Below, in pieces: positions 2,900 through 21,909 of a stretch of DNA of 64,000 bases. The number at the start of each line of letters is the position of its first letter. Positions within the stretch are counted from its first letter, which is position 1. This stretch comes from Octopus vulgaris. Its lineage: Eukaryota. The position numbers and the translations under genes are program-made. The stretch spans positions 1,116,001 through 1,180,000 of the forward strand of contig OX597830.1 of the NCBI GenBank assembly GCA_951406725.2. Direction: 5' to 3'. The notes beneath the pieces are model-generated. The model saw only the letters and a list, made by a program, of their open reading frames with translations, made no database searches and was not told the origin of the DNA.

Positions 2900-2954
<55 letters not shown>

Positions 2955-3142
2955 TATATAAAAGGGCTTAGTAAAATAAATTACTTTGCCGCATACTGAA
3001 CTCATTAGAAATAGCAGCTAAAAAAACTTTTTTAAAACTATTTCCAATACTTAAAGAAAATCTCTCTCATATAGTGCTTGTTCAATTCAACTCACGAAAG
3101 TATGAGGGTAGAAACATTAAAAAATCAAATGCAAAGGTTATT

Positions 3143-3195
3143 TGAGAACGTACGTTTCAAGATTAGTCAAACTCGACACTTCTATCATCAGCTCA
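3143..3195 (-). ncRNA. Type I hammerhead ribozyme motif (element A, copy 1)
   Basis: Minus strand reads UGAG-CUGAUGA-[UAGA..GUCGAGUUUGAC..UCUU]-GAAAC-GUAC-GUU/CUCA. Core is canonical, helix I is UGAG/CUCA and helix III is the palindrome ACGUACGU. Confidence 0.8.
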
Positions 3196-3676
3196 GAACT
3201 CCCTGGTTTGGATTTGAAAACACTGAAAGCAGGAGCATACCTATTCGGCTTCCCATCGCCTCCGAAGATCTACTCGCAACTAACAGTGCCAGCAAATTCA
3301 AATATGCAAGCGAAGAATTTCTGCTCTCCCCCTTCCAACAGCGTGGGTTAAAATCAACAAACAACATGCTTTTTTTCGGTAAAATCCGAGGCATTAAATA
3401 GAGAAAGATGAATTATAATTTCAACAATTGAGGGTAAAATTAATTAATTAATCAATTTCACCAAGTATTCAGTATGCAAAGGGACCATTTAAGGCGAATT
3501 CAAATTATTACATTATATAAAAGGGCTTAGTAAAATAAATTACTTTGCCGCATACTGAACTCATTAGAAATAGCAAATAAAAAAACTTTTTTAAAACTAT
3601 TTCCAATACTTAAAGAAAATCTCTCTCATATAGTGCTTGTTCAATTCAGTGTTTTCAAATCCAAACCAGGGAGTTC

Positions 3677-3729
3677 TGAGCTGATGATAGAAGTGTCGAG
3701 TTTGACTAATCTTGAAACGTACGTTCTCA
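3677..3729 (+). ncRNA. Type I hammerhead ribozyme motif (element A, copy 2)
   Basis: tgag CTGATGA tagaagtgtcgagtttgactaatctt GAAAC gtac GTT ctca; the same sequence as copy 1 on the opposite strand. Confidence 0.8.
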
Positions 3730-4009
3730 AATAACCTTTGCATTTGATTTTTTAATGTTTCTACCCTCATACTTTCGTGAGTTGAATTGAACAAGCACTA
3801 TATGAGAGAGATTTTCTTTAAGTATTGGAAATAGTTTTAAAAAAGTTTTTTTAGCTGCTATTTCTAATGAGTTCAGTATGCGGCAAAGTAATTTATTTTA
3901 CTAAGCCCTTTTATATAATGTAATAATTTGAATTCGCCTTAAATGGTCCCTTTGCATACTGAATACTTGGTGAAATTGATTAATTAATTAATTTTACCCT
4001 CAATTGTTG

Positions 4010-4051
<42 letters not shown>

Positions 4052-4069
4052 TATATATAAATATATATA

Positions 4070-4340
4070 TCAGAAATATTCAATTCTCTATTTCTAAAGA
4101 TATGTACGGAGGTGGGGCGATATAATGGTTGTATACTGTCAACTTAACGTGACAGTAGGGGATTATATCACCGCTGTTTAGCCCTAGGAAGCGTCGACGC
4201 ATCCTGTTGGCTTCGACACACTTACTGCCTCCTTATATATTTACGAAGGGGAGACAAATACCCCCAACAGCTAGGCCAGCATCTAGAGACACGCATGTTT
4301 CAGGGTCCTTGCCCTTCATCGGTCTAGAGTAGCATTAGTG
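4070..4340 (-). mobile_element. Non-coding hammerhead-bearing element B (~270 bp) in (TA)n
   Basis: Unique-sequence island between TA tracts, with an HHR near its 5' end on the minus strand. Confidence 0.7.
4282..4328 (-). ncRNA. Type I hammerhead ribozyme motif (element B), U4C core variant
   Basis: Minus strand reads UCUAGA-CCGAUGA-AGGG caagga CCCU-GAAAC AUGCGU GUC/UCUAGA. It has a 6-bp helix I, a 4-bp helix II, a self-complementary helix III (ACAUGCGUGU) and a GUC cleavage triplet. Confidence 0.85.
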
Positions 4341-4490
4341 TATATATATATCTATATATGTATATATATATCTCTCTATATATGTATATATGAATATATC
4401 TATCTATATATATGTATATATATCTTTCTCTATACATTTATATATGAATATATCTATCTATATATATGTATATATGAATATATCTATCTA

Positions 4491-4540
<50 letters not shown>

Positions 4541-4541
<1 letters not shown>

Positions 4542-4753
4542 CGCCATGTTGATTCGTTAGTTACTGCACGCATTTTTTTTCTCTCCTTCTTTCTGTGTTT
4601 TTTTTCTCTCTGTGTATCTTTCTGTTGAAGAGCGTAGGCTCGAAACGTTAAAGACTTGTTTTATTTATATTTCCTGAGCGCCATACTATTACAATTGTTT
4701 GTTTGTTTTCCACCTGCCTTCGTCTTTTGTCTATTTTCATAAAGCTTCCCGTT
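4541..4753 (+). mobile_element. Non-coding element C (~210 bp) with minimal hammerhead-like motif, in (TA)n; related to 61205-61412
   Basis: Motif at 4617-4654: UCUUU-CUGUUGA-A-GAGC guag GCUC-GAA-ACGU-U/AAAGA. The downstream ttcctgagcg motif is shared with the 61.3-kb insert. Confidence 0.6.
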
Positions 4754-4812
4754 ATATATATATCTCTCTCTATATATGTATATGTCTATATCTATATATG
4801 TATATGTATATA

Positions 4813-5548: not shown

Positions 5549-6647
5549 AAGGAGTCAAATCCAGCCCAGCCAAAGTCAGCAGTGTTGTCCCACAAGGCAC
5601 TGTGTTGGGCCTACTTCTCTTCATCATCTACATAAATGATATTACTGATACCATCAAACACAGTAACATCAGAACCTTCGCTGATGATTCCAAGCTCCAG
5701 AAGGTCATCAATGGCGTGGATGACCGAATAAACCTTCAGTCAGACCTACTGGCTGTTGTCCAATGGGCGGAAAAGAATAACATGTTGCTAAATGAAGACA
5801 AATTCGAACTGATCCACTTTGGAAGGGAGGACGCTCTGAAACACCCATACTCTCTTCCTTCTGGAGAAATTCTCATGGCATACAACAACATCAGAGACCT
5901 GGGAGTAACAGTGGACAACAACATAAGCTGGGCTACACATATAAGCAGCAAAGTTGACATGGCCCGCAGAATGTGTTCCTGGATTCTCAGAACCTTCCAG
6001 TCGAGAGATTCCCACGCTATTATCCTTCTCTTCTCCACTTTTGCCCGACCCCACCTTGAATACTGCTGTCCACTGTGGTCTCCCTACACAAAACAAAATA
6101 TTATGAGAATTGAAGCTCCCCAAAGGTCAATCACAAAAAAGATAGATGGCATGTCAGACCTTGACTACTGGGGTAGACTAGAGAAGCTGAAATTGTATTC
6201 ACTCCAACGAAGCCGTGAACGCTACATTATCTGTATGATGTATATTCCATCAGCACTGTCCGAATGATGTTGGCATCACCTTCAAAATGCATCCAAGGCT
6301 TGGACCACGTGCCATCCGTCCACAACAAAAATCTAAATCGCATCACATAACGACAATACGGCACAAGTACTTCACCTCAATTGGACCCGCTCTCTTCAAC
6401 ATTACACCAGGACACGTCAAAAAAGAAACTGACCACACAAAATTCAAGAAGTCTTTGGACAAATTCCTTCAAACAGTATCGGACAAACCACCCACACCCG
6501 GATATGTCTCCGCAAACAATAACTCTCTGCTCGAACGGGCCTTGGTGCCCAAATCCTGAACTGAAAGACTTCGCCAGGTGGTGCTATTAAGTTAGACATG
6601 GCCTGGGCCAATACTGGCCAAAAACCTTTCTAAGTTATTCTAAGTTA
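5549..6647 (+). mobile_element. 5'-truncated CR1/L2-group LINE (RT C-terminal half + 3' UTR) in (TA)n
   Basis: [36 protein letters not shown] and LKLYSLQR..ERY motifs. 3' tail ggtggtgctattaagttagacatggcc.. ends in (ttctaagtta)x2. Confidence 0.93.
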
Positions 6648-8401: not shown

Positions 8402-10390
8402 ACTTTGATACTTTGATACTTTGATAGGTTTCGGCCATTATTGGCCCAGGCCATGTCTAACTTAATAGCACCACCTGGTGAAGGATTTCAAGTCAGAATT
8501 TGGGCACTATGGCCCACTCAAGTAGAGAGTTATTGTTTACAGAAACATATCCGGGTGTAGGGGGTTTATCCGGGATTTCTTGAAGGAATCTGTCCAAAGA
8601 CTTCTTGAACCCTATAGGGTCAGTTTCTGTTTTAATGTGTTTTGGTGTAATGTTAAAGAGAGCGGGGCCAATTGAGGTGAAATAATTGTGCCGTATTGTT
8701 GTTGTGAGATGAGAGTGCGATTTTTGTTTTTGGCAGATGGCACGGGGCCCAAGCCTTGGGTGTACCTTAAAGGTGATGCCAACATCATTTGGGCAATGCT
8801 GATGGAATATTTTCCACATCATGCAGATGATGTAGCGCTCACGATGACGTTGGAGAGAATAAAGTTTTAGCTTTTCTAGTCGACCCCAGTAGTCGAGGCC
8901 TGTCATGCCATCTATCTTTTTTGTGATTGCCCTTTGAGGTGCTTCAACTTTTATGATATCATGTGGGGAGACCACAGTGGACAACAGTATTCAAGGTGGG
9001 GTCTGGCAAAAGTGGAGAAGAGAAGGATAATGGTGTGGATATCTCTCGACTGGAAAGTTCTGAGAATCCAGGAACACATTCTGCGGGCCATGTCAACTTT
9101 GGTGTTTATATGAGTGGCCCAGCTTATGTTGTCCACAATTACTCCCAAGTCTCTGATGTTGTTGGACGCCGCGAGAGTTTCACCTGAAGGAAGGGAGTAT
9201 GGGAGTTTCAGGGCATCCTCTTTTCCAAAGTGGATTAACTCAAATTTATCCTCGTTCAGCAGCATATTGTTTTTTTCTGCCCATTGGATAACAGCCAGTA
9301 GATCTGACTGAAGGCATGTCCGGTCACTCGCCTCATTTATGACCTTCTGTAGCTTGGAATCATCTGCAAAGATTTTATGTTGCTGTGCTTGATGATGTCA
9401 TTAATGTCATTAATGTAAATGATGAAAAGAAGTGGGCCCAGCACAGTGCCTTGCGGAACGCCACTACTGACTTTGGCTGGGCTTGATTTTACCCCTTCAA
9501 CTACAACATGTTGAGATCTGTCTGTCAGGAAACACCTGATCCATTTCAGTAACTTTCCAGAGACACCAATGTTGGATAGTTTTTTCAATAGGATCTTGTG
9601 ATCGACCCTGTCGAAGGCCTTACTGAAATCAAGGTAGATGACATCGGTGTTGGAGCCCTCTCCCAAAGCTCTCAAAATGTCCTCAAAGTGATGCAGGAGC
9701 TGCGTTAGGCAGTCCCTTCCATTACGGAACCCATGTTGGTTGGAGATCAGCCGTCTGTTGCTTTCCAGAAATTGGGTTATTCGAGATCTCACCACCCTCT
9801 CAAATACCTTGATGATATGAGAGGTGAGTGAGATCGGACGGTAGTTCACTACAAGGGACTTGTTTCCCTTTTTGAAAACTGGGACAACAGACTGGGACAG
9901 AAGGTTTTTTGGAATATAGCCAGCATCCAGTGAGTTTCTCCACAGATAAGCAAGGGGAGATGCAAGTTGGTGTCGACACACCTTCAGGACACAAGCAGGG
10001 AACCTATCGGTGCCTACTGTTGAATTGTGTTTTATTTCGTTTATCGCCGCTAAGACATCAGGGGCACTAAACGTTATGTCCGATATAGTGTGTTGGGGGT
10101 TGACATCACTGATACAGCCCAGATCGGCCATATCAGGATTGCTGAAAACAAAGCAGTATTGTTTCTGCAGAAAACAGAGCAGTATTGTTTCTGCAGAAAA
10201 CAGAGCAGTATTGTTTCTGCAAGCAGTGTTGTTTCTGCAAGCAGTATTGTTTCTGCAAGCAGTATTGTTTCTGCAGCAGTATTGTTTCTGCAAGCAGTGT
10301 TGTTTCTGCAAGCAGTATTGTTTCTGCAAGCAGTATTGTTTCTGCAAGCAGTGTTGTTTCTGCAAGCAGTATTGTTTCTGCAAGCAGTAT
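8402..10390 (-). mobile_element. 5'-truncated CR1/L2-group LINE (RT domain, frameshifted) in (TA)n
   Basis: [47 protein letters not shown], and C-terminal SLLEW. Tail (atcaaagt)x3. Same family as 5549-6647. Confidence 0.95.
10148..10390. repeat. 18-22 bp tandem minisatellite (agcagtattgtttctgca) at the LINE 5' junction
   Basis: About 12-13 units. The unit equals the LINE's own LQKQYC coding sequence. Confidence 0.9.
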
Positions 10391-21199: not shown

Positions 21200-21464
21200 A
21201 TATATATATATATCTATATATATCTATATCTATATATATATATATATCTATATCTATCTATATATATATCTATATCTATATCTATATATCTATATATATA
21301 TAGTGACGTATTTTTGCCATTTCAATATGGCTAACCCTAAGGGTGGATGCTACAGTAGTTTTAGCCCCAGGAGGACACACTCCTCCAGCTGGCCATAGAC
21401 ACACTATCTGTGTCCTGTCAGTATTTGCAAGGGAAGTCATCCTTCCCGTCTTCAACTTATGATA

Positions 21465-21509
21465 CACACGGACTCGAGTTTCGAGGTATTGACCTCTCGT
21501 CAGCGTGTG
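21465..21509 (-). ncRNA. Type I hammerhead ribozyme (element F, left arm)
   Basis: Reverse complement of 21645-21689. Confidence 0.9.
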
Positions 21510-21644
21510 ACAATCATAGTTGTCGCCGAGAATTAGATTTCCTTCACAAATACTTATACTTTTTCCAGCGTCCACTGTCGCTGATATTGAAAAAGTATAA
21601 GTATTTGTGAAGGAAATCTAATTCTCGGCGACAACTATGATTGT

Positions 21645-21689
21645 CACACGCTGACGAGAGGTCAATACCTCGAAACTCGAGTCCGTGTG
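21645..21689 (+). ncRNA. Type I hammerhead ribozyme (element F, right arm), fully canonical core
   Basis: CACACG-CUGACGA-GAGG ucaaua CCUC-GAAAC-UCGA-GUC/CGUGUG. Helix I extends through an internal loop (aacuaugau-ugu / u-aucauaaguu; 21633-21700). Confidence 0.92.
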
Positions 21690-21909
21690 TATCATAAGTT
21701 GAAGACGGGAAGGATGACTTCCCTTTGCAAATACTGACAGGACACAGATAGTGTGTCTATGGCCAGCTGGAGGAGTGTGTCCTCCTGGGGCTAAAAACTA
21801 CTGTAGCATCCACCCTTAGGTGTTAGCCATATTGAAATGGCAAAAATACGTCACGATGTGTTACCGCTACTGTATATAACTCACTTTGATATTTATCATT
21901 ATATATATA

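Follow-up and report, generated by a model that had tools for sequence, protein, structure and literature searches.

Relation to described elements

Animal retrozymes are described as circRNAs, with PLEs proposed as their mobilisers (PMC7229834). Those of vertebrates are tied to PLE pLTRs; unequal crossover is suggested as the route of array growth, cleavage in vitro failed for eight of nine Xenopus retrozyme dimers, and molluscs are unsampled in the available text of that study (10.64898/2026.07.22.740005). A squid genome paper reports 235 hammerhead matches, with no analysis of them in the part available. Craig et al. (2021) characterise PLEs by truncation at the 5' end, an upstream copy in inverted orientation and a tail on one side, and those of the Hydra clade by (TA)n targets and canonical hammerheads (PMC8557442). 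With the purified PLE protein PAc, RT begins at two internal sites, the interval between which forms the tail, and each target strand is both cut and extended; in vitro its hammerhead is dispensable, unprocessed RNA is the main substrate and the start sites are alike on both strands (PMC11167929). The earlier basis for the proposal of PLEs and circles was co-occurrence, shared ribozymes and pLTR homology. A literature search, with subscription journals mostly outside its range, found no published work on the 559-bp family described here or on junctions of the PLE type in retrozyme arrays.

The 559-bp family of Octopus vulgaris belongs to a known class, the animal retrozymes. Like the metazoan non-LTR retrozymes in the available text of PMC7229834 and 10.64898/2026.07.22.740005, it consists of noncoding tandem units with one type I hammerhead per monomer, a GC content of 34% and strong self-pairing, dispersed as monomers to multimers in a genome with active PLEs. 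The unit length of 559 bp is above the 150–450 given in PMC7229834 and within the 51–972 of 10.64898/2026.07.22.740005. Published metazoan retrozymes include circRNAs; for the 559-bp family, cleavage and circular RNA are predicted. Head-to-head inversion, tail and (TA)n junctions are seen here and are undescribed in the available text of both sources. Unlike the proposal in 10.64898/2026.07.22.740005, the present data argue against array growth after insertion. The plant LTR retrozyme, with a type III hammerhead in two LTRs and a 4-bp target duplication, is not matched; the hammerhead here is type I and the arrays are tandem.

EN+ PLEs, above all those of the Hydra clade, as presented in the accessible part of PMC8557442, share with the 559-bp family 5' truncation, partial tandems, an inverted upstream copy, a tail at one end only, (TA)n and a canonical hammerhead. 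Unlike PLEs, the unit is without an ORF, and its tail measures ~94 bp, against 30–40 bp in the literature available. Poseidon PAc of Anolis is alike in two internal RT starts delimiting the tail, cutting and extension of both strands, an AT-rich target and a predicted dimer (PMC11167929). It differs in using the same start sites on both strands in vitro, whereas 60 of the 61 inversions with two canonical ends here use one of each, and in starting inside a stem-loop that is AC-rich and unlike its target, where the start sites of the 559-bp family are TA-like.

Layout of the insertion

The insertion occupies positions 2953–4013 of the window (the whole 64-kb stretch of DNA that was analysed) and abuts (TA)n tracts at both ends. 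The left tract (2906–2952) is the insertion target; the right tract lies at 4014–4070, both being read from the sequence. The original prediction confined the feature to 2953–3648, which is too short, and called the unit terminally redundant, where there are merely 1.25 laps of a tandem unit. Its segment order A-B-C-D-A with a period of 559 is borne out, A (2950–3089) being repeated at 3509–3648 with 98% identity. The same holds for the inverted part: 3645–4018 is the reverse complement of D-A-B, with 369 matching columns against the doubled unit. Unit positions are numbered R1–R559 in the sense direction, R1 corresponding to 3413; the cut follows R267.

By repeat comparison, arm 1 (2953–3648, minus strand) covers 1.25 laps, is 5'-truncated at 3648 and has its 3' end at 2953, at the site designated E1. 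It contains an internal copy of the tail segment in the lap boundary region (3418–3511, minus strand). Arm 2 (3645–4013, plus strand) covers 0.66 lap, is likewise 5'-truncated and has its 3' end at 4013, at the site designated E2. The hammerheads are on opposite strands, so the left arm has its sense on the minus strand and the arms stand head to head. The inversion junction (3645–3648, locus L001) is a 4-bp overlap of the arms (gap -4).

Type I hammerheads lie at 3141–3197 on the minus strand in arm 1 (core start 3191, predicted cut 3147/3146) and at 3675–3731 on the plus strand in arm 2 (core start 3681, predicted cut 3725/3726). The single canonical hammerhead expected for each 559-bp unit is present, one per monomer and two in the insertion. 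The core is canonical, the cut triplet is GUU and helix III is a 3-bp palindrome; the base of helix II is a U-U mismatch, which fits the available description of axolotl HHR_Amex2. A hammerhead descriptor search gives 6 matches in the window; 20 shuffled windows together give 2. In an Rfam scan of the window the hammerhead stays under every gathering threshold, and isolated hammerhead pieces (69–91 nt) fold no better than shuffles (z +0.9 to +1.2).

In agreement with the original prediction, to which no protein similarity was apparent, the unit (GC 0.34) is noncoding by frame length, the longest stop-free stretches in six frames being ~100 codons, and by tblastn of four PLE proteins of the same genome, with 0 matches in the window.

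Family in the genome

The window is part of contig C17. Search of the 2.80-Gb genome with the unit gives 1351 candidates, 40 of which were scored. Exact matches to the hammerhead pattern number 1393 genome-wide; a control pattern has 0. The number of loci, at least ~700, is an extrapolated lower bound, the first 100 pattern matches occupying 50 loci. The 90 insertions analysed comprise 37 best matches of the unit search, a set biased toward full-length copies of young age, 47 collected in their order along C1, unbiased and with ~3 kb flanks, and 6 from a search with a short-helix pattern. Duplicate loci were excluded, as were four family loci of the short-helix search (L128, L136, L143 and L152), of which three run off the edge of the locus.

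Tandem arrays with a period near 559, for which the original prediction proposed to search the genomic copies, are found. They are head-to-tail, with a period of 556–563, arms of <0.1 to ~8 laps and a length of up to 4.5 kb, and are set in (TA)n. The median arm is 544 bp, about one lap. Upstream of each unit is another unit, and none of the 90 insertions runs into an ORF. The continuation of segment C into a PLE ORF, which had been named as evidence against a circular or multimeric RNA, is not seen, with 0 of 90 sampled insertions running into one, and the organisation of an autonomous PLE (an RT and GIY-YIG ORF between pLTRs) is not matched in any of them. It is accordingly extremely improbable that the unit is just the pLTR of an autonomous PLE and its copies 5'-truncated fragments. 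Such a reading agrees with the PLE-like architecture of the insertions, and an ancestral pLTR origin remains likely, but in each of the 90 insertions, 47 of which were sampled in genome order, the sequence upstream is another unit instead of an ORF; with ~700 loci estimated, a rare ORF-joined copy may exist elsewhere. PLE fragments near insertions have their own ends or the opposite orientation. At L014, a degenerate and interrupted PLE fragment stands head to head with the unit.

Two sister families have the same architecture. Family 2 has a unit of 562 bp, is ~75–80% identical and has 225 pattern matches (loci L178–L197). Family 3 has a unit of ~506 bp, a different hammerhead and 2760 candidates; its terminal homology to the 559-bp family reaches z 3.9, but the best of 2000 shuffles scored higher. 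Considered as a PLE partner, family 3 proved to be another retrozyme, the ORF being absent in nine of nine loci. At L043, a member of the 559-bp family is inserted in the TA tract that ends a family 3 insertion (628–1790). The flanks of loci L001–L197 hold at least 10 further hammerhead families, several with a U-U or A-A base of helix II and a palindromic helix III.

3' ends, tail and inversion

The 3' ends fall at two sites ~94 bp apart, E1 at ~R461 (2953 and 3919 in the window) and E2 at ~R555 (4013). By family comparison, the ~94-bp tail from E1 to E2 (3920–4013, plus strand) is at one insertion end only. Canonical 3' ends run into TA in 146 of 150 cases (filled sites). Head-to-head inversions make up 65 of the 90 insertions: 60 pair an E1 end with an E2 end, 1 has E2 at both ends and 4 have one non-canonical end. 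Within the unbiased C1 set, 35 of 38 inverted insertions have the one-E1-one-E2 arrangement. Copies that are not inverted terminate at E2 (15), at E1 (9) or elsewhere (1). Two fixed 3' ends are the tail signature of PLEs and point to PLE-type machinery as the mobiliser. The 559-bp unit is very probably a PLE-mobilised non-LTR retrozyme.

Colinear copies with fixed ends had been held to count against a circular or multimeric RNA. The 5' ends are not fixed; the 3' ends are, at two sites which the original prediction overlooked. Its reading, more than one lap around a circle or copying of a tandem transcript, is supported as an either/or and survives the refutation test which it set itself by way of fixed ends and a PLE ORF.

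At most junctions the two arms overlap by a few bases. Symmetry within 3 nt is seen at 5 of 54 simple junctions (0.7 expected), and within 10 nt at 8 of 54 (permutation p = 0.0008); one symmetric junction sits at a natural palindrome. The excess may reflect a fold-back origin for a minority of insertions.

One template per insertion

Divergence between laps was calculated after masking 172 of 559 columns (homopolymers, ends and hypervariable loops). It is 0.42% within an arm, 0.54% across the arms of a locus and 5.6% between loci. A foreign arm is closer than the locus's own second arm in only ~1% of comparisons (46 testable loci). Over 28 paired loci, divergence within arms is not different from that across arms (p = 0.21) and the two correlate (rho 0.54), so the laps are as old as the insertion. 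The same haplotype and the same age in all laps of both arms indicate that the arrays were multimeric at birth. Multi-lap arrays recur in separate subfamilies, each fixed for its own variants.

Among polarised derived variants of 37 multi-lap loci, 86 are in all laps (77 of these in both arms), 92 in one lap and 13 in a subset of laps (9 within one arm, 4 across arms). Transitions make up 54% of the one-lap changes, among which there may be assembly errors. At L033, position 110 is variant in the outer three of four laps of one arm and the outer two of four of the other; at C5, a variant at positions 124–125 occupies three adjacent laps of one arm. The 13 subset variants, notably L033 position 110, misfit a single perfect circle.

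These data bear on the order of events proposed for vertebrates (10.64898/2026.07.22.740005), in which solo pLTR-like monomers come first and arrays arise later by DNA-level unequal crossover. The nine one-arm subset variants, that at C5 among them, show some later exchange between DNA copies. Equal divergence of laps within and across arms, variants that are mostly one-lap or all-lap, and several loci with two multimeric arms tell against growth of this kind as the source of the arrays, which is very improbable.

The 5' ends (n = 150, called against nearest-subfamily references) fit a uniform spread round the unit, with densest-window p of 0.16–0.55. Clusters near unit positions 210 and 390 lost significance once re-called against these references. 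Only 2 of 150 ends lie at R263–273, within ~5 nt of the cut. Of 42 unascertained arms reaching the cut, 41 pass it; stops at the cut number 4 in 214 passages, against a background of 2.8%, and 219 of 220 passages are indel-free at the cut itself. Free-arm lengths fit an exponential marginally (KS p = 0.07). Uniform 5' ends and scarless passage of the cut indicate a template other than a pool of cleaved linear monomers, namely a circle or an uncleaved multimer.

A cleaved linear monomer could mimic a circle if the RT jumped from its 5' end to its own 3' end. Template jumping is known for other non-LTR RTs, and with end-to-end jumping, several laps of a single haplotype per insertion would need no ligase. 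The lack of both a stop excess and scars at the cut speaks against it, and jumps between different molecules would make subfamily mosaics, of which none is seen; such jumping is very unlikely.

The other candidate is the same element moved by the same PLE machinery from an uncleaved linear multimer, transcribed from a young, homogeneous source array, the ribozyme acting late or having another role. For PAc, RNA that has not been processed serves as the principal substrate and no reads end at its cut site, in the data available from PMC11167929. The L033 variant lies in the outer laps of both arms, as if one heterogeneous multimer had been copied, and scarless passage of the cut site is predicted by a linear multimer too. 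The PAc data and the non-cleaving Xenopus dimers keep this template alive, and the weak features of the hammerhead here also count against a ribozyme-made circle. It is nevertheless rather unlikely: 5' ends do not pile up at any transcription start, a median arm of about one lap would require a long homogeneous master array for each subfamily, laps would have to be regenerated after each all-lap fixation (86 all-lap variants), and there are merely four cross-arm subset variants.

Conservation at the RNA level

Hammerhead helices I–III are conserved and pair in 95% of cells (27 distinct sequences); N7 is variable. Helix II has a compensatory change from U:A to C:G in 6 sequences, all of one related family. 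Variation is 6.1% in segment C and 0.9% in the terminal module; the value of 0.08% for the core overstates its conservation, 53 of the 90 loci having been recovered by a core pattern. The terminal module (3823–4013, plus strand), delimited by pairing and low variation, is structured and conserved. It comprises a hairpin (3823–3869), an 11-bp stem (3871–3881 with 3954–3964) with E1 (3919) inside its loop, and a second hairpin (3969–3998), all on the plus strand. Paired positions of the module are retained in 99.8% of cells (28 sequences). In the stem enclosing E1, C:G is replaced by U:A in 10 of 28 sequences, a type of count inflated by relatedness. Conserved pairing of the hammerhead and the terminal module suggests, as far as sequence comparison goes, that selection acts on the RNA of the unit.

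In circular-mode folding the 559-bp unit has z -5.0 in the sense (40 shuffles, 63% paired) and -2.6 in the antisense orientation, and the two sister families have z -5.7 and -4.7; such scores do not tell a circle from a line.

PLEs of the same genome

Two families are of Hydra type, having the clade's defining motifs RW-K/R, DKT and CxCX5C. The first (P0001), very young, has one short and one long end in four of four inverted pairs, with a tail of ~64 bp; the second has two end types and a tail of ~75 bp. A Neptune-like family also has two end types, with a tail of ~40 bp. In the very young family, 150 of 150 scored matches are identical over the C-terminal 152 aa, among 21815 first-look candidates, and L091 (4265–6418, minus strand) contains an open ORF of 717 codons. 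The Neptune-like PLE (L098–L127) is abundant, with 21020 candidates and open frames of up to 869 codons; its hammerhead core looks degenerate in the copies inspected. Pfam gave no match for two PLE proteins; a protein-cluster atlas placed one PLE protein with HTH_animal and GIY-YIG clusters. The ribozyme lies ~195 nt upstream of E1 in the 559-bp family, against ~30 nt in both of these Hydra-type families.

Among the few PLE families compared, no autonomous PLE has a terminus significantly homologous to the unit; the best scores are z 2.3–2.9, for one Hydra-type family. The Neptune-like family, the P0001 family and six other PLE fragments show no terminal homology. Of 32 matches to the short-helix hammerhead pattern, 30 were examined; 12 belong to the 559-bp family and none is PLE-linked. 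The second Hydra-type PLE (L198) shares the tail at 85–89%, as a captured miniature inverted insertion and not as its own terminus. This PLE (1500–8400 of L198; C1, 68.81–68.82 Mb) is in tandem with a period of ~5.4 kb, its ORF lying in two frames, and the captured retrozyme lies in its long microsatellite-like 3' region and is co-amplified (331 pattern matches). The likeliest partner would be a Hydra-clade PLE.

Proposed mechanism

On the favoured reading, both target strands would be primed by a PLE enzyme from a single RNA, the likeliest template being a circle made by the ribozyme, at about even odds. Arrays would first be transcribed. The hammerhead would cut the transcript to 559-nt monomers, to be ligated to circles, as suggested by its conservation and by the retrozymes of coral, mussel and axolotl. 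A PLE RT/GIY-YIG protein would then bind the terminal module and nick both (TA)n strands, an action modelled on PAc biochemistry; the (TA)n target preference is the observed part of this step. Priming of the two target strands on a single RNA molecule would start at E1 for one strand and at E2 for the other, for which one-of-each ends and a shared haplotype are observed. Each cDNA would circle the template and drop off at random after 0.1 to 8 laps, the lengths and random 5' ends being those observed. Joining of the two cDNA ends would give the outcome seen, in which the insertion is head to head and one end has a tail. The whole chain, in which a retrozyme is moved in trans by a PLE from a circular template, is judged evenly poised.

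The circle is favoured over the linear multimer because no transcription-start pile-up is present, multi-lap arrays occur in many subfamilies and the ribozyme is conserved. Truncating linear copying could only shorten arrays and never regenerate laps. A more specific version is put forward tentatively: an asymmetric PLE dimer would carry out rolling-circle RT of one circular ribozyme RNA, with one fixed start (E1 or E2) per strand, and a clade of at least three retrozyme families of this genome would retain a module of roughly 160 nt as a portable PLE-recruiting signal. In the predicted structure, E1 would lie in a single-stranded loop closed by the conserved stem and E2 beyond a hairpin.

In contigs of sequencing runs, whose RNA status is only guessed, the unit occurs in 4 of 24 runs and the head-to-tail joint in 3 of these 4. 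The joint is the same for a circle and a tandem array, so its presence in contigs does not separate them; back-joined reads alone cannot decide, a circle and a tandem transcript yielding an identical junction.

To co-occurrence, shared ribozymes and pLTR homology the 559-bp family adds junction-level support, with hundreds of young insertions bearing the full PLE signature and multimeric at birth. The near-strict rule of one E1 and one E2 end on one haplotype is so far unexplained by in vitro PLE data. With a structured RNA of small size and active PLE proteins, one genome provides a test case for circular against linear templates.

Other repeats of the window

Other long repeats in the first 10 kb are only (TA)-type tracts and a LINE-like inverted pair. 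The pair consists of LINE-like RT fragments (5549–6623 and 8429–9497), 82–93% complementary, with a TA tract between them. A fragment at 4076–4345 (minus strand) has a hammerhead-like motif with its core at 4322 and one core base changed; it is probably the 3' piece of another PLE-type element, and no other copies of it are present among the sampled loci. The 3' end of a common repeat lies at 4541–4760 (plus strand), matches the terminus of the Neptune-like PLE fragment at L044 with 96% identity and ends in (TA)n. A small head-to-head inverted insertion of a different hammerhead family lies at 21300–21860, with cores at 21503 (minus strand) and 21651 (plus strand) and (TA)n at its left end.
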